A DNA stretch of 64,000 nucleotides from positions 1-64,000 of the IMG/VR virus record IMGVR_UViG_3300033475_000009, one strand, 5' to 3'. Both the position numbers and the translations under genes were made by a program. Source of the stretch: a virus (Duplodnaviria; Caudoviricetes). Shown one piece after another: positions 3,050-45,400 of this stretch. The notes beneath the pieces are model-generated. The model saw only the letters and a program-made list of their open reading frames with translations. It was not told the DNA's origin and did no database searches. How positions within the stretch are numbered: position 1 is the first letter of the stretch; each line of letters opens with the position of its first letter.

Positions 3050-3294
3050 ATATCTATATGTTCTTTTTCAGATATAAATAATATTATATATACTTTACTA
3101 AACCAGCTAATAGATAGTTGGTATCTATCACTATATACTCCATCACTAAATTCATATACATAGTAAGGACCATTAGTAACTTTAAATCTATTAAAACTAA
3201 TGTCTAACTTATTATGCATTCTATCAGTATACATTAAAGTTGTACGTGCTTCATGTATATTTTCCTTTGTATATTTATTATATCTTATTTTCAT
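3046..3294 (-). CDS. hypothetical protein (82 aa)
   Basis: ORF track; overlaps with neighbours. Confidence 0.55.
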   Translation of the reverse strand: MKIRYNKYTKENIHEARTTLMYTDRMHNKLDISFNRFKVTNGPYYVYEFSDGVYSDRYQLSISWFSKVYIILFISEKEHIDI

Positions 3295-3512: not shown

Positions 3513-3752
3513 TTATTCTATATTTTTATCCCATTCTTTTAATATACTACTCCAGATTTCTTTGTCTTTATACCAACTCTCAGTTAGTTCTCTACCTTCC
3601 TTATCATACTAACATATACAATACCAACTCTTACCCTGCTTCCAGGATTGTAATACTATATCTTTAAAGTAAGGTATTTGTATATGTAGTAAATCATCTA
3701 TATAAATCTTTATATAATTACCTGTTATCTTTAACTCTACTTTACTATTCAT
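3513..3752 (-). pseudogene. 79-codon ORF interrupted by an in-frame TAG (3609-3611)
   Basis: MNSKVELKITGNYIKIYIDDLLHIQ...WYCIC*YDKEGRELTESWYKDKEIWSSILKEWDKNIE; ATGA overlap upstream and stop 1 nt before the next ATG. Confidence 0.6.
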
Positions 3753-4510
3753 ATACTTTTTAAGAGTTTATATAATTCATAATTCCATCTTGCATCAGAG
3801 AGTGCATTATATTCATTGGTTTGAGTAGGGTAATTAGGATGTGTTTTTATTTCATGTCCATAAATAAATTGATCCTTATTAGATCCAAAATAAATTCTAC
3901 CATCACCTGTTTTATCATAAGCTTCAGTAATCTTATTTTCTAATTCCTGTTTCAGATCAATGCAATACATCGGAAATCCTTTGGGAAGATCAATCATCCT
4001 ACCAAATAACCAGCAGAATACTACCCAATCATAGTCTGAATAAAAGCCATAAAATTGAGGTAGTCTATTTTCTCTTTTTAATAATTCTATTCTGCCTTCG
4101 TAAGTTGATCTAGCTTCAGATGTCATTTTATTCCTAATAGTAAGTCCATTTTTTAAATCTAACTGATCTTTATAAGAAACAAAATCTTTAATCTCTTCTG
4201 CTATTTGTTTATTAGATTTACCAAAATGATTTATAAGTCTAGTAAATTCTTGTAGGTAGACTATCTCAGAGTAGTGTTGATATTTATCATTATTAAAAAG
4301 ATTCTTTAATACATTGTCTCTTAACCACTCATTATTCCAGGCAGCTTTTATATCAAAATCTTTAGATATGGCGTAGTACTCTCTACCATCTTCAGCTACT
4401 ACACCTATTGAAATTAATTCAATAGTATCTACTGGTTTATTACTCATTAAAATATCTAAAAGATTCTTCTTTTGATATTCATGAAATTCTGTATCTATAA
4501 AATATTTCAT
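3749..4510 (-). CDS. DEDD 3'-5' exo(ribo)nuclease, DUF5051/Rv2179c-like
   Basis: N-terminal YFIDTEF, ELISIGVVAEDGREYYA, YSDYDWVVFCWLFGRMIDLP, C-terminal NALSDARWN. Confidence 0.85.
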   Translation of the reverse strand: MKYFIDTEFHEYQKKNLLDILMSNKPVDTIELISIGVVAEDGREYYAISKDFDIKAAWNNEWLRDNVLKNLFNNDKYQHYSEIVYLQEFTRLINHFGKSNKQIAEEIKDFVSYKDQLDLKNGLTIRNKMTSEARSTYEGRIELLKRENRLPQFYGFYSDYDWVVFCWLFGRMIDLPKGFPMYCIDLKQELENKITEAYDKTGDGRIYFGSNKDQFIYGHEIKTHPNYPTQTNEYNALSDARWNYELYKLLKSI

Positions 4511-4511
4511 A

Positions 4512-4877
4512 TTAGTCTATAATCATATAGTTATTTAATTCCATATCTTCTCTTACATAATGATTAAAGCCTAACTCTTTATATCTAGTTTGTATAATTA
4601 AATCTTCACTATTAATTGATTTATTTACATATAACACTCTATCATATACTATATCATATAACTTCATGCCTTCTTTAAGTTCTTTATATGAAATAATATT
4701 TCTTAAAGTAGAACGGATTAATGCTCTCTTTTCATTAAGTAGAGTTAATATATAACTATAATCTACATATGATTTTTCTATGATACTTCCTAATTCTCCT
4801 GTATAAGCATGTGTATGAGGAAGGGATTGAAGTAGTTCTATTTCTACTTCTAATTTAAGTTTTTCTTTTTCTGTCAT
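4512..4877 (-). CDS. hypothetical protein (121 aa)
   Basis: ORF track. Confidence 0.65.
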   Translation of the reverse strand: MTEKEKLKLEVEIELLQSLPHTHAYTGELGSIIEKSYVDYSYILTLLNEKRALIRSTLRNIISYKELKEGMKLYDIVYDRVLYVNKSINSEDLIIQTRYKELGFNHYVREDMELNNYMIID

Positions 4878-4919
4878 AAATATTTATTTTGGGTTGTTTG
4901 CAATTTAGTAAAATATTAT

Positions 4920-4927
4920 TACCTTTA
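4920..4927 (+). promoter_or_regulatory. -7-like promoter element for leader 1
   Basis: TACCTTTA, TTTG at 4897-4900, ATG 4 nt downstream. Confidence 0.55.
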
Positions 4928-4931
4928 CATT

Positions 4932-4985
4932 ATGTTATTCACTAGAAAAAATAATAATGGTAAGGATTGGGCTAGAAGGGTCTAA
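4932..4985 (+). CDS. attenuator leader peptide 1 MLFTRKNNNGKDWARRV
   Basis: 17-codon ORF; KNNNGKDW run matches downstream tRNAs Trp/Gly/Asn/Asp/Lys. Confidence 0.85.
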   Translation: MLFTRKNNNGKDWARRV

Positions 4986-5012
4986 GGCTAAACTATTATA
5001 TAAATATATTAG

Positions 5013-5050
5013 AATCCTTAGACCTGATAAATCTAAGGATTTTTTATTTT
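5013..5050 (+). terminator. attenuator terminator 1
   Basis: AATCCTTAGA/TCTAAGGATT stem + TTTTATTTT; 5' arm can instead pair with GGTCTAAGG (4979-4987). Confidence 0.85.
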
Positions 5051-5052
5051 AT

Positions 5053-5121
5053 ACACTTTAGGCTAAGGTAGCCAAGAGATCTCCAAAATCTTAGGAAGTA
5101 GTTCGATTCTACTAGAGTGTG
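5053..5121 (+). tRNA. trnW: tRNA-Trp(CCA)
   Basis: ACACTTT/AGAGTGT acceptor, GAGAT-CTCCAAA-ATCTT anticodon arm, AGTAG-TTCGATT-CTACT T arm. Confidence 0.85.
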
Positions 5122-5126
5122 CATAA

Positions 5127-5198
5127 GCAGTATAAGTGTTGATGAATACATACCTGACTTCCAATCAGGAGTAGACAGATTATTACTGTCATACTGCT
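5127..5198 (+). tRNA. trnG: tRNA-Gly(TCC), atypical T loop
   Basis: GCAGTAT/ATACTGC, CCTGA-CTTCCAA-TCAGG, T loop ATTATTA, U73. Confidence 0.8.
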
Positions 5199-5203
5199 CT
5201 AAA

Positions 5204-5275
5204 GAGATAGGTAATAGTTCGATTCTATTTATAATATCTTAAAGATATTATAAGGTGTACTGGTGGCATAATCTC
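5204..5275 (+). ncRNA. circularly permuted tRNA-like RNA 1
   Basis: GAGAT - T arm AATAG/TTCGATT/CTATT - closed acceptor-like hairpin TATAATATCTT/AAGATATTATA - D arm GTGT/ACTGGTG/GCAT - ATCTC. Confidence 0.7.
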
Positions 5276-5279
5276 GCAT

Positions 5280-5351
5280 GGGAAGTTAGCTTAATGGTAA
5301 AGCTTCTAGCTGTTAACTAGAAAGATATTAGTTCGAGTCTAATACTTCCCT
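5280..5351 (+). tRNA. trnN: tRNA-Asn(GTT)
   Basis: GGGAAGT/ACTTCCC, TCTAG-CTGTTAA-CTAGA, canonical D and T arms. Confidence 0.95.
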
Positions 5352-5357
5352 CTACAA

Positions 5358-5513
5358 TGTTAGGTGATGAAATTGGTAGACATTTCCCTACTGTCTCTAG
5401 GGAGAGGAACAACTGATAAACTCAGAATAGTGGATTGACCACCAAAGTAAGTTAAAAGATATTTTGTTCTGAAGCTAAAGTCCTCGTGTAAGGTTCGAGT
5501 CCTTCCCTAACAG
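5358..5513 (+). ncRNA. tRNA-like RNA with GTC anticodon and 85-nt variable arm
   Basis: TGTTAGG/CCTAACA acceptor, class II-type D arm, TCCCTA-CTGTCTC-TAGGGA, variable arm closed by GAGGA/TCCTC, T loop TTCGAGT. Confidence 0.8.
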
Positions 5514-5514
5514 C

Positions 5515-5638
5515 TAAGAAAGAAGAATAGGTTAAAAACCTATATAAGTAAATGTTGGCTAGAACTAAAATATTAAAAGTAATATAGATAACGCTTTTAT
5601 TTTATACTTATTGATGTAACTGACAGCATACTTTCTTA
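5515..5638 (+). ncRNA. circularly permuted tRNA-like RNA 2
   Basis: TAAGAAAG - ATAGG/TTAAAAA/CCTAT - ATAAGTA...54 nt...TACTTAT - TG - ATGT/AACTGACA/GCAT - A - CTTTCTTA. Confidence 0.6.
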
Positions 5639-5642
5639 ACCT

Positions 5643-5714
5643 GGTCTATTAGTATAATGGTTATTATATTCCACTGTCACTGGAAAGAAGAGAATTCAAT
5701 TTTCTCATAGACCG
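5643..5714 (+). tRNA. trnD: tRNA-Asp(GTC)
   Basis: GGTCTAT/ATAGACC, TTCCA-CTGTCAC-TGGAA, G73. Confidence 0.9.
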
Positions 5715-5719
5715 CTTAT

Positions 5720-5793
5720 TTCCTTGTAGCTTAATTGGCTAAAGCACCATCCTTTTAAGATGGGTTATGTGAGTTCAAATCTCACCAGGGAAA
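5720..5793 (+). tRNA. trnK: tRNA-Lys(TTT)
   Basis: TTCCTTG/CAGGGAA, CCATC-CTTTTAA-GATGG. Confidence 0.92.
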
Positions 5794-5809
5794 CTAAAAT
5801 TTATTTTAT

Positions 5810-5817
5810 TATCTTTA
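5810..5817 (+). promoter_or_regulatory. -7-like element for HNH 1
   Basis: TATCTTTA-CAAA-ATG, same spacing as leaders 1 and 3. Confidence 0.45.
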
Positions 5818-5821
5818 CAAA

Positions 5822-6271
5822 ATGAAAAAATGTACTAGATGTAAAGAAGAAAAATCTTTTGAATCCTTTAGTATAAAAGGAAATAGAAAAAAAGATAATA
5901 GTATTATATATCAAGATTTTTGTAAGAATTGTCAAAATGAATATACTAAAAAATGGTATATAGAGAATAAAGAGAAACATAAAAGAAATACAGCTATTCT
6001 AAATAAGAAAAACTTTGAAAGTATTCGATATTACATATACAATTATTTAAAAGATAAAGAATGCATAGATTGTAAATCAATAGATTTTAGAACTTTTCAA
6101 TTTGATCATAGAGATAGAAATAACAAAGTTTCAGAAATATCTACAATGGTAAAAAATAGAGTTAGACTAGAATTGATAAAGTTAGAAATAAATAAATGTG
6201 ATATAAGATGTGCTAATTGTCATATCATTAAAACAGGTATTGAAAATAATGCTTGGTGGACAAAATTATAA
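5822..6271 (+). CDS. HNH endonuclease, homing type, with Zn-binding N-terminus
   Basis: CTRC...CKNC; CIDC...FQFDHRD...KCDIRCANCHIIKT. Confidence 0.85.
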   Translation: MKKCTRCKEEKSFESFSIKGNRKKDNSIIYQDFCKNCQNEYTKKWYIENKEKHKRNTAILNKKNFESIRYYIYNYLKDKECIDCKSIDFRTFQFDHRDRNNKVSEISTMVKNRVRLELIKLEINKCDIRCANCHIIKTGIENNAWWTKL

Positions 6272-6312
6272 AATATTTTTGTTTACTATTTTGAACTTTT
6301 AATTATTAATAT

Positions 6313-6320
6313 TAGTTTTG
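6313..6320 (+). promoter_or_regulatory. -7 promoter element for tRNA-Met and leader 2
   Basis: TAGTTTTG matches TAnnTTTG, 8 nt before the tRNA. Confidence 0.55.
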
Positions 6321-6328
6321 TACCATAT

Positions 6329-6401
6329 TGCGAGTAGGACAAGTGGCTAAGTCAGAAGTCTCATAAGCTTTCAGGAGTGGGTTCAATTCCCACACTCGCT
6401 A
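6329..6401 (+). tRNA. trnM: tRNA-Met(CAT), probably initiator type
   Basis: TGCGAGT/ACTCGCT with 1:72 mismatch, GAAGT-CTCATAA-GCTTT, A73. Confidence 0.85.
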
Positions 6402-6412
6402 CTAAAAATAAT

Positions 6413-6481
6413 ATGAAAAATTTATCACTATATAGTTTATGTTCGTATCTCTTATATAAAGAGGTTGATATAACTATATAG
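6413..6481 (+). CDS. attenuator leader peptide 2 MKNLSLYSLCSYLLYKEVDITI
   Basis: 22-codon ORF; 12 consecutive Leu/Ser/Tyr/Cys codons matching the downstream array. Confidence 0.88.
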   Translation: MKNLSLYSLCSYLLYKEVDITI

Positions 6482-6510
6482 TAAATAAAAAACTAATAAA
6501 TAGTTATTTG

Positions 6511-6545
6511 ACCTCTAGGAATAAAATCTTAGAGGTTTTTTATTT
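6511..6545 (+). terminator. attenuator terminator 2
   Basis: ACCTCTAGGA/TCTTAGAGGT + TTTTTATTT; alternative helix 6460-6477 with 6500-6516. Confidence 0.85.
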
Positions 6546-6548
6546 CAG

Positions 6549-6622
6549 GTCCTTATGATGGAATAGGTATACATACTAGTTTTAGAAACTAGGTTCTGTA
6601 GGTTCGAGTCCTACTAAGGATA
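6549..6622 (+). tRNA. trnL: tRNA-Leu(TAG), short variable region
   Basis: GTCCTTA/TAAGGAT, CTAGT-TTTAGAA-ACTAG, A73. Confidence 0.88.
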
Positions 6623-6625
6623 CAA

Positions 6626-6703
6626 GTACCATTGGTGGAATAGGTAGACACGCTACACTTAAGATGTAGTCTTCGGGTATAAGTTCGAGTCTTATATGGT
6701 ACA
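6626..6703 (+). tRNA. trnL: tRNA-Leu(TAA)
   Basis: GTACCAT/ATGGTAC, CTACA-CTTAAGA-TGTAG, miniature UUCG variable arm. Confidence 0.92.
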
Positions 6704-6708
6704 CAATA

Positions 6709-6779
6709 GGGATAAAGGTCAGGGTAACTCACAATGACTGTAAATCATAGGTGCTGAAGTTCGATTCTTCATTATCCCA
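6709..6779 (+). tRNA. trnY: tRNA-Tyr(GTA), short variable region
   Basis: GGGATAA/TTATCCC, ATGA-CTGTAAA-TCAT, TGAAG-TTCGATT-CTTCA, A73. Confidence 0.8.
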
Positions 6780-6784
6780 CTTAT

Positions 6785-6870
6785 AGAGAGTAAACTAATC
6801 AGGGGATTAGACCTTCCTGCTAAGAAGTGTGAAGCCTAAAAACTTTGAGTTTCGAGTACTCTGCTCTCTG
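6785..6870 (+). tRNA. trnS: tRNA-Ser(GCT)
   Basis: AGAGAGT/GCTCTCT, CTTC-CTGCTAA-GAAG, long variable arm, G73. Confidence 0.88.
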
Positions 6871-6876
6871 CTATAA

Positions 6877-6967
6877 GGAGGTTATCTGGCTGGATGAAGA
6901 GCCTGTCTTGAAAACAGGTAAGTCGATTTAATAAGTTGGCTTGTGAGTTCGAGTCTCACAGCCTCCT
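6877..6967 (+). tRNA. trnS: tRNA-Ser(TGA)
   Basis: GGAGGTT/AGCCTCC, CCTGT-CTTGAAA-ACAGG, long variable arm. Confidence 0.9.
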
Positions 6968-6970
6968 CTT

Positions 6971-7042
6971 GTCTAGTATTACTAATGGATAGTATATAGT
7001 CTGCAAAACTATAAATAGAAAGTTCGATTCTTTCACTAGACT
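6971..7042 (+). tRNA. trnC: tRNA-Cys(GCA)
   Basis: GTCTAGT/ACTAGAC, ATAGT-CTGCAAA-ACTAT, U73. Confidence 0.9.
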
Positions 7043-7066
7043 CTTGTTTATTTAAAATAAAATATA

Positions 7067-7074
7067 TAATTTTA
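7067..7074 (+). promoter_or_regulatory. -7-like element for leader 3
   Basis: TAATTTTA-CATT-ATG; TTTACATTATG is identical to leader 1. Confidence 0.5.
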
Positions 7075-7078
7075 CATT

Positions 7079-7153
7079 ATGAAACAGATAATAATAGCCA
7101 TTATTCGTATAGCAGTCAGATCTAATCTGAGTGAGGATAATGTTATTATATAA
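7079..7153 (+). CDS. attenuator leader peptide 3 MKQIIIAIIRIAVRSNLSEDNVII
   Basis: 24-codon ORF; 11 consecutive Ile/Ala/Arg/Val codons matching the downstream array. Confidence 0.88.
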   Translation: MKQIIIAIIRIAVRSNLSEDNVII

Positions 7154-7186
7154 GATACGATTGTTGTAGATTTTGATTAATACACT

Positions 7187-7221
7187 AGCCTTACTCTAAA
7201 AAAGTAGGGCTTTTGTATTTT
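7187..7221 (+). terminator. attenuator terminator 3
   Basis: AGCCTTACT/AGTAGGGCT + TTTGTATTTT; alternative pairing GAGTGAGG (7129-7136) with CCTTACTC (7189-7196). Confidence 0.82.
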
Positions 7222-7223
7222 AT

Positions 7224-7296
7224 GGGGGATTAGTTAAGATGAATATAATAATACACTTGCAATGTATAGTCAGGAGTTTGAGTCTCCTATTCTCCA
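7224..7296 (+). tRNA. trnA: tRNA-Ala(TGC)
   Basis: GGGGGAT/ATTCTCC with G3:U70, ATACA-CTTGCAA-TGTAT. Confidence 0.9.
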
Positions 7297-7301
7297 CTAG
7301 T

Positions 7302-7373
7302 AGGAATATAGTAGAAAGGTTAGCACAATTGCCTGATAAGCAATTAATCCTAGTTCGAGTCTAGGTATTCCTA
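7302..7373 (+). tRNA. trnI: tRNA-Ile(GAT)
   Basis: AGGAATA/TATTCCT, ATTGC-CTGATAA-GCAAT. Confidence 0.9.
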
Positions 7374-7377
7374 CTAT

Positions 7378-7449
7378 AGCTTTATAGTACAATGGATAGT
7401 ACATCTGTCTTCTAAACAGAGAATGATTGTTCGATTCAATCTAAAGCTA
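7378..7449 (+). tRNA. trnR: tRNA-Arg(TCT)
   Basis: AGCTTTA/TAAAGCT, TCTGT-CTTCTAA-ACAGA. Confidence 0.92.
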
Positions 7450-7452
7450 CAG

Positions 7453-7524
7453 GGAAGTATAGTTCAATGAATAGAATCTATAGCTACGGACTATAGGATA
7501 AAGGTTTGAATCCTTTTACTTCCT
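7453..7524 (+). tRNA. trnR: tRNA-Arg(ACG)
   Basis: GGAAGTA/TACTTCC, TATAG-CTACGGA-CTATA. Confidence 0.88.
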
Positions 7525-7529
7525 CTTAT

Positions 7530-7600
7530 TGCTTATTAGTTTAATGGAAGAACACTAGTTTTACATACTAGTAGAGATAGTTCGATTCTATCATAAGCAA
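7530..7600 (+). tRNA. trnV: tRNA-Val(TAC)
   Basis: TGCTTAT/ATAAGCA, CTAGT-TTTACAT-ACTAG. Confidence 0.9.
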
Positions 7601-7605
7601 CATAC

Positions 7606-7680
7606 TGAGAGTTCATATAATGGTTATTATGCCAATCTTATACATTGGTCAAAAGAGTTCAATTCTCTTACTCTCTACCA
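7606..7680 (+). tRNA. trnI: tRNA-Ile(TAT)
   Basis: TGAGAGT/ACTCTCT (1:72 mismatch), CCAAT-CTTATAC-ATTGG, A73, encoded CCA. Confidence 0.85.
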
Positions 7681-7725
7681 TTAAAACTTTTATTATTTTT
7701 ATTTTGTATATATTATACTTTATAT

Positions 7726-7733
7726 TACCTTTG
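7726..7733 (+). promoter_or_regulatory. -7 promoter element for leader 4
   Basis: TACCTTTG, exact TAnnTTTG match; ATG 7 nt downstream. Confidence 0.65.
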
Positions 7734-7740
7734 AATTAAT

Positions 7741-7800
7741 ATGAAGAATGTAACAATCTTTACTCCCTTTACGCAAGAGCATCAGTTTCTGATGGGGTAA
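7741..7800 (+). CDS. attenuator leader peptide 4 MKNVTIFTPFTQEHQFLMG
   Basis: 19-codon ORF; Thr/Phe/Gln/Glu/His make up 10 of 12 codons in the control run, matching the downstream array. Confidence 0.88.
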   Translation: MKNVTIFTPFTQEHQFLMG

Positions 7801-7833
7801 AGGATATTGTTTTCTTCTACATTAAATTTCCTT

Positions 7834-7871
7834 CCCTATCAAACTAAAAATCTGATAGGGTTTTTCTTTTT
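7834..7871 (+). terminator. attenuator terminator 4
   Basis: CCCTATCA/TGATAGGG + TTTTTCTTTTT; alternative pairing TGATGGGG (7790-7797) with CCCTATCA. Confidence 0.85.
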
Positions 7872-7881
7872 ATGTATTTAT

Positions 7882-8382
7882 ATGATAGTAAGTTGTCAAC
7901 ACTGTGGAAAAGATTTTAATTGTACTAGTAGAAGATATAATTTTAATATTAAAAAAGGTTTTAAAATATATTGTTCTAGAGAATGTAATCATAAAGATAA
8001 AATTAAAAACATAATAGTAAGATGTAATTATTGTGGTAAAGAAGTAATTAAAAAACAATATAATCTAAATAAAACTAAATCAGGTAATTATTATTGTAAT
8101 AAGTCTTGTGCTAATTCTATAAATAATTCTTTGTATAAAGTTGGAGAAAAGCATCCTAATTTTATTAATGGTAGATCCTCATATAGAAATATAAAACTTA
8201 GAGATTCTAATTACTGCTGTGAAAATTGTGGAATAACTGATAAAAGAGTTATAGAAGTTCATCATATAGACAGAGATAGAACCAATAATAAATTAGAAAA
8301 TCTTAAAATTTTATGTGCTAATTGTCACTTAATAGAACATTATGAAGAAAGAAAATTAAAAAATGGTGTTAGTGGCAGATAG
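7882..8382 (+). CDS. HNH endonuclease with Cys-rich Zn-binding repeats (166 aa from the corrected start)
   Basis: CQHCGK..YCSREC, CNYCGK..YCNKSC, CENCG..EVHHIDRDRTNNKLENLKILCANCH; start moved downstream of the terminator. Confidence 0.85.
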   Translation: MIVSCQHCGKDFNCTSRRYNFNIKKGFKIYCSRECNHKDKIKNIIVRCNYCGKEVIKKQYNLNKTKSGNYYCNKSCANSINNSLYKVGEKHPNFINGRSSYRNIKLRDSNYCCENCGITDKRVIEVHHIDRDRTNNKLENLKILCANCHLIEHYEERKLKNGVSGR

Positions 8383-8437
8383 GTAATGCGCTAGTTTGTG
8401 AAGCTAGTTTATATGGGTTCAAATCCCATCTAACACC
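8365..8437 (+). tRNA. trnH: tRNA-His(GTG)
   Basis: G-1:C73, GTGTTAG/CTAACAC, CTAGT-TTGTGAA-GCTAG. Confidence 0.92.
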
Positions 8438-8442
8438 TATTA

Positions 8443-8514
8443 GCTCCTGTCGTCTAGTGGCTAGGACGAATGCTTTTCAAGCATTAAAAGAGGGATCGAA
8501 ACCCTTCAGGAGTA
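8443..8514 (+). tRNA. trnE: tRNA-Glu(TTC)
   Basis: GCTCCTG/CAGGAGT, AATGC-TTTTCAA-GCATT. Confidence 0.9.
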
Positions 8515-8520
8515 CTATAT

Positions 8521-8594
8521 TCCAGATTAGTTTTATATGGCTAAAACACATCTCTTGTAAAGATAAGTACTCAGTTCGATGCTGAGATCTGGAT
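8521..8594 (+). tRNA. trnT: tRNA-Thr(TGT)
   Basis: TCCAGAT/ATCTGGA, ATCT-CTTGTAA-AGAT, CTCAG-TTCGATG-CTGAG. Confidence 0.88.
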
Positions 8595-8599
8595 CTTAT

Positions 8600-8672
8600 G
8601 GAACTAAAGCTAATCAGGTGAAAGCACTGGTCTGAAAAACCAGAGAGGTTAGATCGTTACTAACTGGTTCCA
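8600..8672 (+). tRNA. trnF: tRNA-Phe(GAA)
   Basis: GGAACTA/TGGTTCC, CTGGT-CTGAAAA-ACCAG. Confidence 0.88.
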
Positions 8673-8679
8673 CACATAA

Positions 8680-8752
8680 TGTCCTATGGTGTAATTGGCA
8701 ACACGTCTGACTTTGATTCAGGAGAGTCTAGGTTCAAACCCTAGTAGGATAA
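8680..8752 (+). tRNA. trnQ: tRNA-Gln(TTG)
   Basis: TGTCCTA/TAGGATA, TCTGA-CTTTGAT-TCAGG. Confidence 0.92.
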
Positions 8753-8757
8753 CTAAG

Positions 8758-8928
8758 TTATTTTATAATTAATTTTGTTATAAAATTCTTAATTTTAGAT
8801 AATATATTTTCTTCACTAACTATCTGAGTACTAATTTCTTCTATTACCTTAGTATCTTCTACTTTATTTTTATATCTTTTTAAGTGAGTAAATCCACTAT
8901 GTTTTCTATGTCTATTTCTATTTCTCAT
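8758..8928 (-). CDS. small hypothetical protein (56 aa) with basic N-terminus
   Basis: Manual translation MRNRNRHRKHSGFTHLKRYKNKVEDTKVIEEIS...; not in the ORF track. Confidence 0.4.
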   Translation of the reverse strand: MRNRNRHRKHSGFTHLKRYKNKVEDTKVIEEISTQIVSEENILSKIKNFITKLIIK

Positions 8929-8995
8929 ATAACATTTATTTATTTTATATTTAAAATTAATAATTAATTATATGGTTTTATAATTATTTTAATTA

Positions 8996-9003
8996 TATAT
9001 TTG
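8996..9003 (+). promoter_or_regulatory. -7 promoter element at the start of the + strand module
   Basis: TATATTTG upstream of ORF 9030. Confidence 0.55.
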
Positions 9004-36447: not shown

Positions 36448-39400
36448 ATGCCAGATCCAAAAGAAAAGAAATCTTCTTTTAATAATATAGATTATAAATC
36501 TATAGCTAATAATATAGTTTCTAGTGATCCTGCTTTTAATCCTTCTCAATACGAAGGAAAACTTGATTTAAAAAGTTCTACTTTAGAAGGTGGAGTACCT
36601 GCTGCTTTAGTAGGTAATCCTTCTGCTGATGAATATCTAGCAGAATTAAAAGCTAAGAGACAAGGACTGTTAGATAAGTTTGCTAATGGTACTTTACAGG
36701 CAGCTAATACTGCTGTGGTAGGTACTATAGGTAATACTGCTGGAGTTATAAATGGTTTGGTAGATTTAGCAGATAATAAATCTTTCTTTGATAACCCTAC
36801 ATTTAAATTTATGGATGAATGGGATGAATCAGTTAAAGAAGCTTTCCCTCTTTATAGATCTAAGAAAGAAATGATAGGATCTGTAGGTGATAGAGTATTA
36901 GATAAAGATTTTCTTTTTGGTGATATTTTTCAAGGTTTAGGGTTTGTAGGTTCTTCTTTAATACCTGGTGCTGGATGGAGTAGAGCAGGTAAAGTAGCCA
37001 GAGGTGCTATATTAGCCAATAGACTAAATAGACTAGAACAATTAGTAGCTAAAGGAGCTGTAACTACAGCTGAATATAATAATCTATCTAAGTTCATTAA
37101 AACTACTGATGATATTATTAGTACAACTTCTAACTTAGGAGCTGCTACTATGGGTAGAATGTATGAAAGTAGACTAGAAGCTAAAGATGTATATGATCAA
37201 ACTTATAATTCTTCTTATGATAAAAAGCTAGATGAATTAAGAACTTCAGGGTTATCAGATGATCAAGCTATGATACAGGCTGATAATTATGCTACTAAGA
37301 AAGCAACTGATGCTAGAAATTATTCTTTTGGAGCTAATATGTTATTATCTATACCTGATTTCTATCAGTATACTAAGATATTTGGAGGTATAGGAAATAA
37401 AGTAAATACTGTTAATAAAATAGCTTCTAAGACTGCTTCAGAGACTATTGAACAAGGATCTAAGGGTTTACTAGGTAAAGCAACTAATCTTCTTGGAAAA
37501 GCTATTAAAAATGAAAAACTTGCAGTAGCAGGTACTGAAGCTTTAGAAGAAGGTACTCAATATAATATCGCTGAAACTGCTAAGAAATTAGCTGAAAGAG
37601 ATTATGATTTTAATGTTTCTAATTTTGTAGACGAGTTTATAAATCAGTCTATTCAGAATATATCTTCTCCTGAGTTTTTAACTTCTTCATTAGCTGGAGC
37701 AGTAATAGGAGGAGGTTTAGGCTTTATAGGTAATAACAATAATACAGATAATCCAAATCTTAAAAATAGTATTCAAGCAGTACAAGAAAATTCAGATCTA
37801 CTAAAATCTACTGAAAAGGCTAGAGATGGATTTTCTAAATTCACTCAGCTAGAACAGAATAAAACAGAATTAGCTGAAAAGATAGCTAATAAAGATACTA
37901 AAGAAGAAGATAAAGTAAGAGCTGAAGTATCACATAGACAATTAGATAATTTATCTTTTGCTCAATCAGTTAAACAAAATGTTGAATCTGGTAAATTAGA
38001 TAATTATCTAATGGAACTAGAAACTATAGGTAATAATACTAAGGAACAAATTACTAGTGATTTTGGTACTACTTCTTTTGAGTATAAATCTAATGGAGAT
38101 GAACTTAGTCCAAAAGAAGTTATTGATAAAAAGATTCAAAGAGCTAAAAGACAAGCAGCCGTTTATCAGGATATACAAACTAAATTTAATAATTTATCTC
38201 AGGTAAGTAAAGATGAACTGTACAATCTTCAAGTAACTACTGATTATAATAGAGAAAAATTAGGAGTAGTTACAGGTATGATAGATAGATTAACTCTAGA
38301 AAAACAAAATTCAGAGTTATCTAAAATTCCTTTTACTGCTGAAAAACAATCAGATCTTAATAATTTAAATAAAGAAAAAGAGTATCTAATTGAAGATCAA
38401 AAGAAAATAGACGAAAGATTTCTAGATATTAAATCAGGTAAAGCAGAAGATAGAAAGTTAAAAACTGACAATCTTCCTACTCCTTCAATCCCTAAAGTAA
38501 AACAAGAACAAGTAGAAACTCCTATAGAGACTATTAAAGCTTCTAAAGAAGGTAAATACAAAGGTTCAAATATTGAGGTGTTAAGTAAAACTCCTATAGG
38601 AGATAGAATTACTTTTAGAGTAGAAGGTAATAACTCTAAAATATCTTTATCAGAAGAAGAATTTAATAAACAAGTATTATCTAAAGGATCAGATACTAAT
38701 TATAATACAGGAGATACAGTTATACTTTCCGATGGTAAAAATGTAATAGATACTAGTAAGTTGTCTAATAATAGAAAAGAATTAGGTACAGTTTCTTTCT
38801 TTAATAGCCCTATAGAATTTAAGTCTAATACTATACTAGATAGAAAAAATGAAATATTATCTGATCCTAATTGGAAATCTAAGTTTAGAATTAAAGTTAC
38901 AGATTTCTATGCTAAGAATAAACCTTTAGCTACTAAAGCTTATTCTAATAGTGAAGTACACACATATACTAATGGAGGAGATAATGCTATAGATATTATA
39001 TTGGAATATAATGATACTATAGATGATAAAGATAATTGGGTTACTTATGGATCTTTACCTTATTCTGGTATGATTAGAGATTCTAAAGGTAAACCTTATG
39101 ATTTATCTACTATGAATTATTCTGATTTTGTTAGTAAATTTTATATAGCAAAAATCATAGATAGTAATGGAGTAGAGCAAACTATAGAATATACTCCTGA
39201 TCAATTTAGCCAGCTTAAAATAGAACAATCTAAATTTAATGAATTTGAAGAGTTGCTAAAACAACAGTTTAATAAAAATAACAAAGAAGAAGCTATACTA
39301 CCTACTAATGTAGTAGATACCAGAATATCCTATTTCGTTAATTCTGTAGATACTTTATTAAACAATATTCTAACTAATCCTGAATTTACTAATAGTAAAT

Positions 39401-42400
39401 TATTAGTTATTTCAGATGGTAAAATAAATAAGGATCTTACTAATACAGATAGAAGATTAGCTATACCTGATTATTTAACAGAAACTTATGGTACTAACAA
39501 TAAAACATTTATAAATGTAGAACTACCTAATGGAGTATCTTTCTGGACTATAGCTTATGTAAAAGGTAATAATAAAAAATTAGAATCAGAAATCATAGCT
39601 GATCTAATTGGGCTTATTACTAATTATAGTAAGATTTCAGTGAATCCTGAAAATGATAATAAAGTAAATAATATAATTAAAGATATAAATAGCAAACTAT
39701 TTATAAGTAATAGTTTATCTAGCTATCTAAGTTTTAGAGCTTATCCTTTAGAAGATAAAACAGGATATAAGATAAAAGTACAATTAAAAACAGATGCAGG
39801 TACTAAATATATAGATATTTTTAATCCTGAAATTACAGTTAAATCTGATGGTACTTCTTTAACTATAAATGACTTAAATTCTTACTTTAGTTTTGATAAT
39901 TTATCTACTTTAATAAATAGTGGATTTAGTAAATTAGGTTCTCCTATTAATATTAATGCTGAGAATTTTATATCCAATAATACTAAAGGTAATCCTAAGT
40001 TAGAGGATTTAACAGTACCTATAGGTTCTCTAAATTATAATATTAAATTAGAATATAATAGTAATAATTTACCTACATTAACTTCTTCTGAAACTTTAGA
40101 TAAATCTACTAATAAGGATTTAGATAATGAAGTAGAGAATGATGTAGCTGATTTAGTAGCTAAGAGCAAAGAGAAAAAGAAAACTAAATTTAGTTTAGAA
40201 TATAATAGTATTGATAATACTAAAGTATCTAGGCAGTATTTAGAAAATATAGCTACTAAGATTAATTCTCAATACAATTTAAATGTATCTATAGAACCAG
40301 TATTTGATAATTCAGGTAGACCAGTTAAAGGTAAATTTGAAAATGGTACTGTTTATCTAAATCCTCAGTTTGCTACAGAAGATACTCCTATACATGAAGT
40401 AATTCACCCTTTTATCTCTATTATAGAGGATAAGAATCCTTTACTATATAAGAACCTTATTAAAGAAATGAAGGCTTCTAGTATAGGTAAAAGAGTATTA
40501 CAGTCAGTCACTGATAATTATTCAGATCTTACAGATACAGAATTAGAACAAGAAGCTTTAGTTTCATTAATAGGATACTATGCTTCAGGAGTTATACCTA
40601 ATGAAGAAAGAGACTTAATATCTGTTATAAAAGCTTTATTTAAGAAAATAGCTTCTTATATTAAATCTATATTTAATAGAGATATAGATCCTTCTGATAT
40701 AGCTACAACTACTACTATTTCTGATCTATCAGATATTATAGTTAATTCTAATATAGATTTAGGTACAGTAATAACTAGAGATTCTAAAGAAGCTAAATTA
40801 GACTTATTGTCGGCTAATGATAGTAATAAGCTAATAAATACTGTAGGAGCTAAAACAGTATTAAGAATTGATACTAGACCTACTAAAGAGAATCTTAAAC
40901 CTATTATTAATTCTATTATAGAACAAACTAAGCTAGAAAATAATACTAGAAATATAGATGCTTCTAATATAGAAGATTTAGAGGAAAGAAAAGCTTATAA
41001 ATTAAAAAGACACTTAGTTTATGAAGCTTTAAATATTCAGGATAATGTAGATAGTATTATTAAATCAGTCACTGAAGATATACTTAAAATGCATTACTCA
41101 GAAGAAGGTACTTATTCTGAAGAAGATGATACTGTACAGAATGTAAATGATGAAGCTGATATTAGAGATTATGAAGAAGGAGTAGAAAATTCAGGCGGTT
41201 GGAATAATGTAGATCCTGAAGTAAGAAACTTTATATATTATAATACTTATACTTATATAGATGAAGCAGGATATGAAATTACTGAAGCTATAGATGGAGT
41301 AAATGTATATAAAACAATACAATCTTCTTTAGCTGATAAAGATCCTTCAGAATTTATTTCTATACTAGAGGTTATTAGTAAATATGATTTACAGCTTAAA
41401 TCAGTATTAGATAATTTTAAAGTAAAAACAGGTTATGGTATAGAAGGTACTAAAACTTTATCTCAATCTAATTTCTATAATAAATTCTTTAAAGCTTTTG
41501 AAAACTCAAAACTTGAATATGTACAAGTATTTGAAAGTAAAAAAGGTGATCTTATAGTAAATTCTGCTAATAAATCTATGACAGCAGGTAGACTATTTAG
41601 TAGATGGAAAAATAATTTTATAGTTAATAAAGATACTTTAAAAGTAAATTCTGATAAATTAAACAAGATTATAAATGATATAGGTTCAGAAGTAATTTCT
41701 TCTCCTATAGATATAGTTAATAGTTTATATACAGGTTTAAATAATATTGGTATAGGAGTATCTAAACCTTTCATAGAATATTCCTTTATATCCGAATCTC
41801 CTTTATCTACTTTTGAAAAAGAAGGAGTAATTAAACTAGATATTAATACTATAAAGAGGCTTTTAACTTCCATTAAAAAAGATATAGATATTTTTGATAA
41901 AGGAGAAAAAGGAAGTACTGGATTATTATATGAAATAGCTGAAGCTGACGCTATATTTAGAACTGATGCTATTGAAGATACTTATAGAGATTCCAGAGGT
42001 AAACTAAGAAATAGTTTTACTAAACAAAATCTAATAACTAAAGCTATTAGTACCTGGAAAAGAAATATACAAGATTCAGATTTTATTAGATCTATTAAAG
42101 GAGATAAAAATAATTATTATCATTATAATTATTTATTTAATAATAAATTATTTGATTCAGAAGCACAACTTAAAGAAGTATTTAAGAATGCTGATTTAGC
42201 TCTTATAGGTGATATAAGATCGGGTAAAGATAAATATACCACTAGAAATATAGTTACAGATGCTTTCTCTAAGATGCAAATAGCCTTATTTAGAAATGCT
42301 ACTTCTCCTAAAGATATCTCTGATAATAGTTCTTTTAAGTTTGATCCTAGAACTGATTCAAGACAAAAATTTGCTTTTGTAGACTTTGGTAAAATATCAG

Positions 42401-45400
42401 ATAAGAATACAGAAATAGCTTTAAGATTACCTATAGATAATAGATTCTTTGATGGTAAAGAGTTTACAAGTTGGTATATAGATCAATTATATGATACTAT
42501 ATTCCTACAAGAATATAATAAGCTTAAGAACTATGAAACTAAAGGAAGATTATATTATTCTAAAGATAAACCTCTTACTTTAAATCCTAATGTAATTAAA
42601 AATAATAAATTGGGTAATGGCTGGATGAATCTATCAGTATTAAATAATTCAGTAATAGATCAATTTAGTACTACTAATAATAAACCTGAATATCTAGAAT
42701 TAAAGGACTTACTTAAAGTAGAAGATTTATCTACTAAAAAAGAATTAGTTAAGAAATATCTTAATGAAACATTTACCAAAAGCTTTAAAGATTATCTAAA
42801 TATATTACTAAGTGAAGGCTCTATTAATAAAGATTCTGATTTAGTAGAGTTAGGTAATATGTATGCTAATAATTATATACTGAGGACTTCTTTTCAACAA
42901 TTAGTTAAAGGAGATTTAGCAGTATCTAAAGATTTAGATGATGACTTAAAAAGAAATGGTAGAGTTACAGCTTATGGAGATTCAGGAATAGACTTTACAG
43001 GAGATAAAACTAATACTTATAAAGTATTGTATATGACTGAAGCTATTAACTATAAGATTAAAGAAGATAATAACTTTAGAGATTTAACTCCAGAAGAAAA
43101 TAAACTTAGAGAAGAAGGTAAAGAAGTAAAAGGTTTAATAGAAATAAATTCAGATGATGCTGGAGTTAGAATGACAGTTAAACATTTTATAGATACTTTA
43201 CAGAGATTAGGCAGGCTAGATGATAATACTTTAAAGATATTAACTAAACTAGATAATGGAGAACACCTAACTCCTGGAGAAATTAATAAGATAGACTTAA
43301 TACCTCTTAAAGGAGTACATGGAGGATTAGATAAATATTTTAAAATGTCTCAACTTTGTCTTACTAAAGAACTTACTTCAGTTAAAGATAAAGATGGTAA
43401 TTGGATACCTAGATTAGGCAGAGAACAATTACATAATATGAGAGAATTAATGGAAAGAAATAATATAGGTTTGGCTATGCCTAAATCTGCTTCTAAATCT
43501 ATTAGTAAATCTTTATTTAATCAAAAACAATTATTTGAGTCTAGTGATTTTGATATAACTGAACATTCAGAAGATGTTAGTTGGGAAGATTGGAGGTTAC
43601 AAGTAGAAAACCAATCTGGTAAAATAGAAATTTCTCAACCTGTGCAGATTTTACAAATGATTGATGGATCTTCTAAAATATCTCAGGATATTAAAGATAA
43701 ACTTCAAACATTATATGAACAACAGAGAGAAGCTGATATTAATGATGCTATGAATATAGCTACAGGTAATACAGTTTTTGGTAAACAAGCTTTAGTAGAT
43801 AAGTTTTATGATAATGCTATATCTTCAGCTGCTGATGCTAATACTCTAGAGTATTTATCAGGTAATGAAGGAGAATTTAAATATAATCCTAACTTACCTC
43901 ATATAGCATTTACCTTTGAAAATTATTACACTTCTCATTTTAATAAAGGAGTATTAGCGCAGAAAGTAGCTGGTTATAAATGTACATTAGCTCCTTCTAC
44001 AGGCATTAAAGTTTTAAGGAATACTCAGACAGGAGATATAGTAAGATCTGATGCCTATGAAGCTAATAAAACAGAATTTAAAGGTAAAGAATACCAAGTA
44101 TCAGAATTAAGAATTCATTCAGGCATTTCTCCTTATGCTGAATGTTTAATGACTAAATCTCAAGCTCAGAAATTAGGGCTAGTTATTGGAGATAGTATAG
44201 ATCAGGAAGTATTTAAAATGGTAGGAACTAGATTACCTTGTCAAGGTTACAGTTCTATGATACCAATTAAAATAGTAGATTTCTTACCAGAATATTATGG
44301 TTCTACTATTATAGCTCCAGAAGAAATAGTTTATATAGCTGGTTCAGATTATGATGTGGATAGTCTTTTTATAATGAGAAAAGAAGCTTATTTAGATAAA
44401 GAAGGTAATACTAGATATTATACTTATAATGAGTCTAATAATGATCTTAGATGGAATGATTATTACAACTATTTAACTACAGCTAATAAGAATGTAGTTT
44501 CTAAGATTAGGCAAGGTATGCCAGTAGAAGAAGCTTTAAAAGCTTATAATTATTCTTCTACTAAAGAAGAGTTCTTAGCTAAAGAAAAAGAAACTGGTAA
44601 GTTTTTTAACTCTAAGTATTCAGTAACTAATGAGATAGTTAATATCTATGAACAAATATTAACTGATCCTAAGATGTTACCTGACCTTCAGGAACCAGTT
44701 ACTACATCAGGATTTGATATTATAGGTAAGGCTATTTACTTTGGATTATTTAATGAAGGTAGTAAAATGAATTACTTCCATAATTCAGACAAAGCCCTTA
44801 AAAAACATTTTGAATTAGCTACACAAGGTAAAAGAGATGTAGGTCCAGCAGCTTTAGGATCTAGTATTAGTAGTTTCTTTAAAAAACATAAAGTTACTTT
44901 AAATGAAGGAGATGAAAAAAGAAATATCCCTTCATGGCATTTTATGTTTAATAATAAACTAGTTAATAATTTCTATGAAGATGATGTAATAGATTTTGAT
45001 TTTGTATATAAAGATGGTAAACCAGTATTAAATGAAGAAGGCATGCCTCTTACTACAGATATAGCTACTGTATCTAAACAGGAAGTACATTCAGGATTAA
45101 TATCTATTACAGTAGATAACCAGAAAGATCCTGTTTGCTTTATGCTTAATTTAGATGAAACTAATACAGCTATAGCCTCTACAATGATACATTTAGGTAT
45201 AGGAGGTAAAGGATTTATAGCTACTTTAATGAACTCAGGACCAGTTAAATATGGTATAGGTAATCCTTTTGAAGGAAATAGAAACCAAGTTACTAAAGAA
45301 TCTTTAGTTAAATCTATGATGGGTAAAGCTTCTGAAAAAGAAGAAAATGATATAGCTGCTCTATATAAACATTTATCTAATATATCCTCTTCTACTTTTA

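Follow-up and report, generated by a model that had tools for sequence, protein, structure and literature searches.

Why phages carry tRNA genes, and when those genes are used, is an old open question, for which the explanations offered include compensation for codon usage, substitution for host tRNAs that have been degraded and evasion of defences that cleave tRNAs. The locus analysed here raises it in a specific form, namely whether a block of phage tRNA genes preceded by a short ORF and a hairpin with a U-tract is expressed constitutively or under the control of ribosomes decoding that ORF. The analysed stretch of DNA (i.e. the window) is the first 64 kb (64,000 nucleotides) of a 90.5-kb IMG/VR virus record (IMGVR_UViG_3300033475_000009) with direct terminal repeats. 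Window positions 7703-7871 probably form a ribosome-mediated (i.e. leader-peptide) transcription attenuator that gates an HNH endonuclease gene and tRNAs for His, Glu, Thr, Phe and Gln. The basis for this reading, consisting of sequence anatomy, statistics, an in-silico switch and recurrence in other phages, is shown; the attenuator itself is inferred from the sequence and in-silico folds, with no RNA, ribosome, reporter or bench evidence.

The window has a G+C content of 27.6%, and its large terminase and portal families indicate that it most likely belongs to a crAss-like phage, an assignment made from sequence alone. An ORF of 3,513 aa was also present at 36448-46989, a size fitting the giant protein typical of crAss-like phages. 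Phage DNA was found only in soil-metagenome sequencing runs (two DNA runs were returned), and no RNA sequencing run containing this DNA is on record.

The plus-strand tRNA array has a minus-strand replication module (RNase H, 3749-4510) on one side and a plus-strand structural module on the other. ARAGORN called 21 tRNAs at default settings, and the total rose to 23 with the addition of tRNA-Gly(tcc) (5127-5199; Rfam, 35.7 bits) and tRNA-Ser(gct) (6783-6871), both of which were missed by default ARAGORN and found by Rfam and relaxed ARAGORN. Two HNH endonuclease genes (5822-6271 and 7882-8382) interrupt the array. Other tRNA-related sequences were observed, including one at 5358-5514 with class-II-like D and T arms and a 78-nt insertion in the anticodon region, which was called 'Gln(ctg)' by the intron mode of ARAGORN and is of unclear identity and function, and a second T-arm-like remnant at ~5205-5235.

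Anatomy of the L4 unit and its siblings

The unit termed L4 lies entirely on the plus strand. A promoter of the Bacteroidota sigma-A type occupies 7703-7733, with a -33 TTTG (7703-7706), a 19-nt spacer and a -7 box, TACCTTTG (7726-7733), that ends 7 nt before the leader ATG. The leader ORF (7741-7800) starts with ATG at 7741, encodes 19 codons (MKNVTIFTPFTQEHQFLMG) and terminates with TAA at 7798-7800; no Shine-Dalgarno sequence precedes it. Twelve of the codons (7753-7788) form a control run, ACA ATC TTT ACT CCC TTT ACG CAA GAG CAT CAG TTT. The strict promoter pattern TTTG-N19-TAnnTTTG was detected four times in the 64-kb window as compared to an expectation of 0.38, with two of the four copies being inside the tRNA array, namely that of L4 and one directly preceding tRNA-Met, a leaderless gene. 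A like layout was present for the sibling leader L1 and for leaders on two further contigs (i.e. L001 and L032, described below), the box in these cases lying 4 nt upstream of the ATG. This consensus is that of Bacteroides and Flavobacterium promoters, and the lack of a Shine-Dalgarno sequence is normal in Bacteroidota. A Bacteroidota host, use of the host polymerase and nearly leaderless leader mRNAs are thereby suggested, but only as inferences from the consensus; the transcription start is unmapped and is likewise inferred.

Four regions capable of alternative pairings were defined by folding. Region 1 (7743-7785), inside the leader ORF, is the 5' strand of the 1:2 helix. Region 2 (7789-7818) contains the leader stop codon and pairs either with region 1 or, via 7790-7804, with region 3 to form an antiterminator. 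Region 3 (7829-7841), composed of TCCTT followed by CCCTATCA, is both the partner of region 2 and the 5' arm of the terminator, while region 4 (7853-7871) comprises the terminator 3' arm, TGATAGGG (7853-7860), and the U-tract, TTTTTCTTTTT (7861-7871). The 1:2 helix spans 7743-7818 and pairs TTTACTCC (7759-7766) with GGGGTAAA (7794-7801), with CATCAG/CTGATG at the apex. In the 2:3 helix, TGATGGGG (7790-7797) pairs with CCCTATCA (7834-7841) and AAGGA (7800-7804) with TCCTT (7829-7833). The 3:4 helix is an 8-bp stem (7834-7841/7853-7860) followed directly by the U-tract. As isolated helices, 1:2, 2:3 and 3:4 had energies of -21.1, -16.4 and -10.2 kcal/mol, respectively, and their overlapping strands make them mutually exclusive. 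The predicted stability order of 1:2 > 2:3 > 3:4 is that required of a working attenuator, and this hierarchy is predicted to be the best preserved among the four units of the window.

The minimum free energy fold of 7735-7875 consisted of the long 1:2 hairpin and then the 3:4 hairpin with its U-tract (-33.4 kcal/mol; z = -3.44), an energy that was equalled in one of 200 shuffles. Within region 2, CTGATGGGG nearly repeats CTGATAGGG of the terminator 3' arm, as CUGAUGGGG does CUGAUAGGG. A duplex of the terminator 5' arm with the leader had an energy of -11.4 kcal/mol versus -5.6 +/- 1.6 for dinucleotide shuffles (P = 0.007). The terminator has two weak points, an 11-nt loop that is larger than usual and a stem of only -10.2 kcal/mol, and its efficiency is inferred only. 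A simple consensus terminator scan did not list this hairpin because of the 11-nt loop.

Three sibling units with the same geometry were present on the plus strand of the window. Unit L1 (4897-5049) consists of a promoter, a leader at 4932-4985 (MLFTRKNNNGKDWARRV) and a terminator at 5014-5040 with a T-run, and is followed by tRNAs for Trp, Gly(tcc), Asn, Asp and Lys. Unit L2 (6413-6546) has its leader at 6413-6481 (MKNLSLYSLCSYLLYKEVDITI) and its terminator at 6510-6537, and precedes Leu(tag), Leu(taa), Tyr, Ser(gct), Ser(tga) and Cys. Unit L3 (7044-7222) contains a promoter-like box, a leader at 7079-7153 (MKQIIIAIIRIAVRSNLSEDNVII) and a terminator at 7187-7211, upstream of Ala, Ile(gat), Arg(tct), Arg(acg), Val and Ile(tat). 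Four serial modules would thus probably divide the 23-tRNA array into separately gated groups, although this division is read from sequence alone. The tRNA-Met gene (6290-6412 region) has a strict promoter of its own and no leader, and the L2 ATG is only 10 nt past the tRNA-Met 3' end. As the spacing between tRNA-Met and the following leader is short (10 nt here and 13 nt in another phage contig, L090), leader mRNAs of the L2 type could conceivably be freed by tRNA processing.

Codon match between leaders and tRNAs

The block behind L4 (8365-8753, plus strand; Rfam scores of 44.7-62.9 bits, and ARAGORN) comprises tRNA-His(gtg) (8365-8438), tRNA-Glu(ttc) (8443-8515), tRNA-Thr(tgt) (8521-8595), tRNA-Phe(gaa) (8600-8673) and tRNA-Gln(ttg) (8680-8753). 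These five tRNAs can read 10 of the 12 control codons, i.e. three Thr codons (ACA, ACT and ACG), three Phe UUU codons, Gln CAA and CAG, Glu GAG and His CAU; the exceptions, unread by downstream tRNAs, are ATC (Ile) and CCC (Pro). A search for tRNA-Pro elsewhere in the genome for the CCC codon found none, the extra tRNA outside the window being tRNA-Met. A weak Rfam match at 76165 went uncalled by ARAGORN.

Among 416 short ORFs of the window (10-40 codons, ATG start, both strands), the L4 leader ranked first against {H,E,T,F,Q}, and each of the other three tRNA groups likewise had the leader directly upstream of it as its best-matching ORF. Comparison with random proteome segments gave P values of 5.7e-4, <5e-6, <5e-6 and 1.4e-3 for L1, L2, L3 and L4, respectively. 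In a leader-by-group matrix, the diagonal values were 8, 12, 14 and 10 and the off-diagonal values 1-5. The match extends to isoacceptors in the siblings, with L2 containing TTA and CTA/CTC for two Leu tRNAs and TCA/TCG and AGT for two Ser tRNAs, and L3 containing ATA and ATT for two Ile tRNAs and CGT and AGA for two Arg tRNAs. For both of the tRNAs missed by default ARAGORN, the leader of their own group has a codon for the amino acid; AGT is cognate to Ser(gct), and the GGT codon for Gly(tcc) requires four-way U34 wobble. Because sibling leaders match down to isoacceptors, sensing of tRNAs is judged more likely than sensing of amino acids, as inferred from these sequences.

Similar units were sought in other phages. 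A blastn search of the array against 50,697 phage records returned only single-tRNA matches, and a search of IMG/VR with a 21-mer of tRNA-His returned only the L001 contig. Scans for TerL in IMG/VR and in metagenomes each covered 33 loci, and arrays near TerL in these scans were limited to L001 and L032 (= L065); a whole-record tRNA search of five relatives found nothing further. The phage lineage is rare. The closest relative, L001, is a 7-kb fragment with a TerL of 76% identity, in which positions 1-360 form a hybrid unit of an L1-type promoter, an L3-type leader and a terminator before tRNA-Pro and tRNA-His only. This leader mismatches its Pro and His tRNAs, so leader-tRNA matching is not always kept, and L001 is best explained as an array deletion, i.e. 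a collapsed array whose leader no longer matches. In L001, Pro is immediately 5' of His, the position held by an HNH gene in the window phage, which lacks tRNA-Pro though L4 retains one CCC codon.

Matched units were present in more distant genomes. An unrelated contig (L032; TerL 37% identical) carries MVMKQLHLNQPKPLKLFKG and a terminator before Pro, Gln, His, Leu and Arg, and a second unrelated contig (L090), identified via its RNase H, contains three such units. The cultured Maribacter phage Panino also has three units, one of which encodes QRLHQELEQP before Pro, Glu, Gln, His, Leu, Leu and Arg; the Panino paper makes no mention of leader units (PMC11590407). The Panino record additionally contains an annotated phage tmRNA (SsrA) within the tRNA array, between tRNA-Asp and tRNA-Thr (L071 6664-6996). 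In Caulobacter phage phiCbK, small ORFs enriched in matching residues and annotated terminators precede two tRNA blocks, such that two units are clear, and a third, weaker one is located upstream of Glu and Asp; the tRNA arrays of this phage are at 47.7-52.6 kb, with none in the 100-150 kb stretch. The units of Panino, phiCbK, L032 and L090 resemble those of the window in having a promoter, a short ORF spelling the downstream tRNA set and a terminator whose 3' arm is nearly duplicated upstream, but have leaders and terminators of unrelated sequence and group their tRNAs differently. The phiCbK leaders are longer and less pure than those of the window. Codon-matched leaders were absent from the crAss001 array, indicating that this is not a general Crassvirales trait. 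In a pairing test of 11 units from five phages, 10 leaders ranked their own tRNA set first, and none of 500,000 random pairings reached the observed sum.

Predicted dependence of the terminator on ribosome position

The effect of a translating ribosome was modelled by blocking the ribosome footprint at each A-site position and computing the RNA ensemble. For the full L4 transcript, the probability of the terminator was 0.98 without a ribosome; placing the A site on any of codons 6-8 or 10-13 lowered it to 0.00-0.15 and on Pro codon 9 to 0.55, and from codon 14 onward it was again 0.98. The equilibrium fold of full transcripts gave no antitermination for L3 and only partial antitermination for L2. 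Following the failure with L3, the equilibrium model was replaced by a co-transcriptional model in which the transcript was cut before the terminator 3' arm. With this model, sequestration of the L4 terminator 5' arm was 0.98-0.99 for A-site positions through Glu13, varied with the footprint at His14 (0.55-0.98) and was only 0.01 for positions between Gln15 and the stop codon; the switch, falling between His14 and Gln15, held for footprints of A+8 to A+12. For the siblings (L1, W13/A14; L2, Y12/L13; L3, R14/S15) and for the unrelated L032 leader, the switch likewise fell where the control run ends or close to it. Folding order is predicted to matter, by analogy with the trp operon.

The earlier note had placed a control run, the 1:2, 2:3 and 3:4 helices and a U tract at 7741-7871 and had read them as a sensor of Thr, Phe, Gln, Glu and His. 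All of these elements were confirmed at those positions, and multivalent sensing was supported in silico with some restrictions. Thr, Phe, Gln (i.e. CAA) and Glu are predicted to be inside the sensing window of L4 and His14 to be on its edge, whilst CAG15 and UUU16 fall beyond the switch, and the ATC and CCC codons are without a matching tRNA.

In the proposed mechanism, host RNA polymerase would start at the Bacteroidota-type promoter and a ribosome would load on the nearly leaderless 19-codon ORF. With fast decoding of the Thr, Phe, Gln, Glu and probably His codons, the ribosome would reach the end of the ORF and cover region 2, permitting regions 3 and 4 to form the terminator such that transcription would stop at 7861-7871. 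Scarcity of any matching charged tRNA would stall the ribosome on codons 5-13 or 14, where it would hold region 1, so that the 2:3 helix would pair (-16.4 as compared to -10.2 kcal/mol for the terminator) and polymerase would continue by way of the HNH gene into the tRNAs. The tRNAs so made would relieve the stall, constituting negative feedback on tRNA supply. In the absence of translation, both 1:2 and 3:4 would form and termination would be expected. The physiological trigger and the rise in read-through under charged-tRNA limitation are inferred only. L4 has a short ORF that begins with a start codon near the 5' end of the inferred transcript, control codons corresponding to the gated tRNAs, an intrinsic terminator, exclusive helices and an appropriate in-silico stall geometry, and so satisfies the structural criteria for an attenuator.

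The simplest alternative is that an ordinary promoter and an ordinary terminator flank a short ORF that arose by chance and is untranslated, with the hairpin merely ending transcripts of the upstream tRNA group. AT-rich DNA is full of short ORFs (the 416 of 10-40 codons in the window being an illustration), no Shine-Dalgarno sequence is present, and tRNA-Ile(tat) at 7680 has no hairpin terminator behind it, which leaves the end of the upstream unit to be accounted for. Against this explanation, the top-ranked short ORF was correctly placed in all four groups, random pairings never matched the observed sum for the 11 units of five phages, the modelled switch falls where the control run ends, and 2:3 complementarity exceeds that of shuffles; absence of a Shine-Dalgarno sequence is, moreover, unremarkable for Bacteroidota. 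A chance origin is considered very improbable, although translation of the leader remains an inference.

A second alternative retains the codon match as the sensor but has ribosome position acting by a route other than hairpin competition, such as Rho access, RNase processing or action of the leader RNA or peptide in trans. Support for this possibility comes from the crudeness of thermodynamic models, from the lack of L3 antitermination in the equilibrium model and from Sinorhizobium, in which released attenuator RNAs and leader peptides have known functions in trans. Conversely, all four units of the window and the units of other phages have the hairpin, the U-tract and a region 2 containing a near copy of the terminator 3' arm. 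As this near-copy design is required by hairpin competition and not by other routes, hairpin competition is favoured and the alternative is regarded as improbable.

The intervening HNH gene, known attenuators and wider meaning

The HNH homing-endonuclease gene (i.e. HNH2; 7882-8382, plus strand) encodes a 166-aa protein with zf-FCS and HNH domains (PF01844, 26.7 bits) and is located between the L4 attenuator and its tRNAs, such that 500 nt of coding sequence separates the terminator from the tRNAs. The N-terminus of HNH2 aligns residue 1 to residue 1 with an HNH protein of L090 (27% identity; E = 5e-11), which supports the start at ATG 7882. No close relative of HNH2 was found in IMG/VR. The last 18 nt of the HNH2 ORF (8365-8382) overlap tRNA-His, and because the ORF ends inside this tRNA, processing of a read-through transcript by RNase P would remove the HNH2 stop codon; an annotated HNH gene of crAss001 overlaps tRNA-Gly in a similar manner. 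In the first HNH gene of the array (149 aa; window 5800-6271), the ATG follows a TATCTTTA box at a distance of 4 nt. Its product shares only 26% identity with HNH2, from which two independent insertions are inferred.

This arrangement allows for a third alternative, in which L4 is a relic, a once-working attenuator that was uncoupled by the HNH insertion. Transcription of the His-Gln tRNAs would now depend mainly on a start within the HNH gene or shortly ahead of it, leaving the leader and terminator to control only the endonuclease gene, or simply to stand in front of it. The 500-nt gap filled by this gene favours such a scenario, as do two weak -7-like boxes (TAATTTTA) within HNH2 at 7938 and 8157, which might allow attenuator-independent transcription, and a TATATTTG box situated 4 nt before the ATG of the homologous L090 HNH. 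An internal promoter driving the His-Gln array had been named in the earlier note as the observation that would refute its model; a pattern scan of 7861-8365 detected no strict Bacteroidota -33/-7 promoter, leaving only the two weak boxes, and no -7 box directly precedes ATG 7882. Decay would also predict a helix hierarchy other than that of L4, which is the best preserved of the four units.

Further evidence against a relic is that the leader still matches tRNAs beyond the HNH gene, both here and independently in L090. In the latter contig, a leader (MKKGLQHDFRFDGQLPLSSIMG) precedes Pro, Gln and Leu, then the HNH gene, and then Leu, Phe, Asp, His and Gly, and covers tRNAs on both sides of the HNH gene homologous to HNH2. 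This leader begins 13 nt after tRNA-Met (reverse complement 3164-3252), a Met-then-leader order like that of L2. The two loci differ in that HNH2 is directly after the terminator and ahead of all of the regulated tRNAs whereas the L090 HNH gene is inside the gated block. The claim that the match holds across the HNH insertion was therefore supported, by the 10 of 12 readable codons and by the spanning leader of L090, and an uncoupled L4 is thought unlikely.

As a putative attenuator, L4 can be compared with known systems, of which the multivalent thr and ilv attenuators and the pheST leader come nearest to it in logic. Multivalent attenuators of enterobacteria include those of thr (Thr/Ile) and ilvGMEDA (Ile/Leu/Val), and trpL, hisL, pheL and leuL are further examples of leaders. 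These amino-acid attenuators share with L4 a short leader ORF, control codons for multiple amino acids, the 1:2/2:3/3:4 architecture, a stop codon at region 2, a U-tract terminator and predicted read-through on stalling. Enterobacterial attenuators govern biosynthetic enzymes whereas L4 would govern tRNA genes and a homing endonuclease, and the control codons of the window units correspond to the tRNAs encoded downstream, with agreement at the isoacceptor level in the siblings. The window units differ further in being phage-encoded, in occurring four in series per array and in having a nearly leaderless transcript and a Bacteroidota promoter. Membership of the classical amino-acid-operon class (trp/his/thr/ilv) was rejected on the target criterion, the downstream genes being an HNH gene and five tRNAs.

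A parallel may also be drawn with the pheM leader of E. coli pheST, the operon for phenylalanyl-tRNA synthetase, which is also a leader-peptide attenuator that controls a decoding component and responds to charged tRNA; pheST yields a synthetase for one amino acid, whereas L4 would yield the tRNAs themselves, five at once, with direct feedback on supply. The T-box riboswitches of Firmicutes similarly set terminator/antiterminator competition by tRNA status but bind one uncharged tRNA via a specifier codon and the T-box sequence without translation, whereas L4 has an ORF with 12 control codons. A T-box was excluded by an Rfam scan of 4800-9000 at E <= 1, which gave tRNA-clan matches and one sub-threshold Plastid-ycf2 match; no other Rfam cis-regulatory family matched in this interval. 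Leader-peptide control of tRNA genes was not described in the full-text literature searched, including PMC8421152 and PMC11590407. On the basis of the sequence and in-silico folds, L4 would meet every testable structural criterion of an attenuator and depart from classical members in controlling tRNA genes.

The phage, as inferred from this sequence, probably reserves production of these tRNAs for times when they are in short supply at the ribosome. A bolder reading, offered as a possibility, is that the four modules provide an on-demand tRNA supply for each group, with the phage sensing host decoding codon by codon and switching on only the block whose host tRNAs are scarce or destroyed. Potential triggers might be anticodon nucleases, other tRNA-targeting defences or a host with a different tRNA pool. 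Isoacceptor matching would then denote a sensor of tRNA loss and not of amino-acid starvation, and homing endonucleases such as HNH2 may ride on the induced transcripts.

Leader ORFs of 17-45 codons are missed by annotation or labelled as hypothetical proteins. Cultured systems for bench work exist in Maribacter phage Panino with M. halichondriae and in phiCbK with Caulobacter. If the proposed mechanism is true, attenuation of the trp type would extend from enzymes to tRNA genes, and expression of phage tRNAs would be a feedback response to slow decoding of those very codons and not constitutive. Each module would be a natural reporter of the decoding shortage that the phage expects, and the question of when phage tRNA genes are used would become testable.
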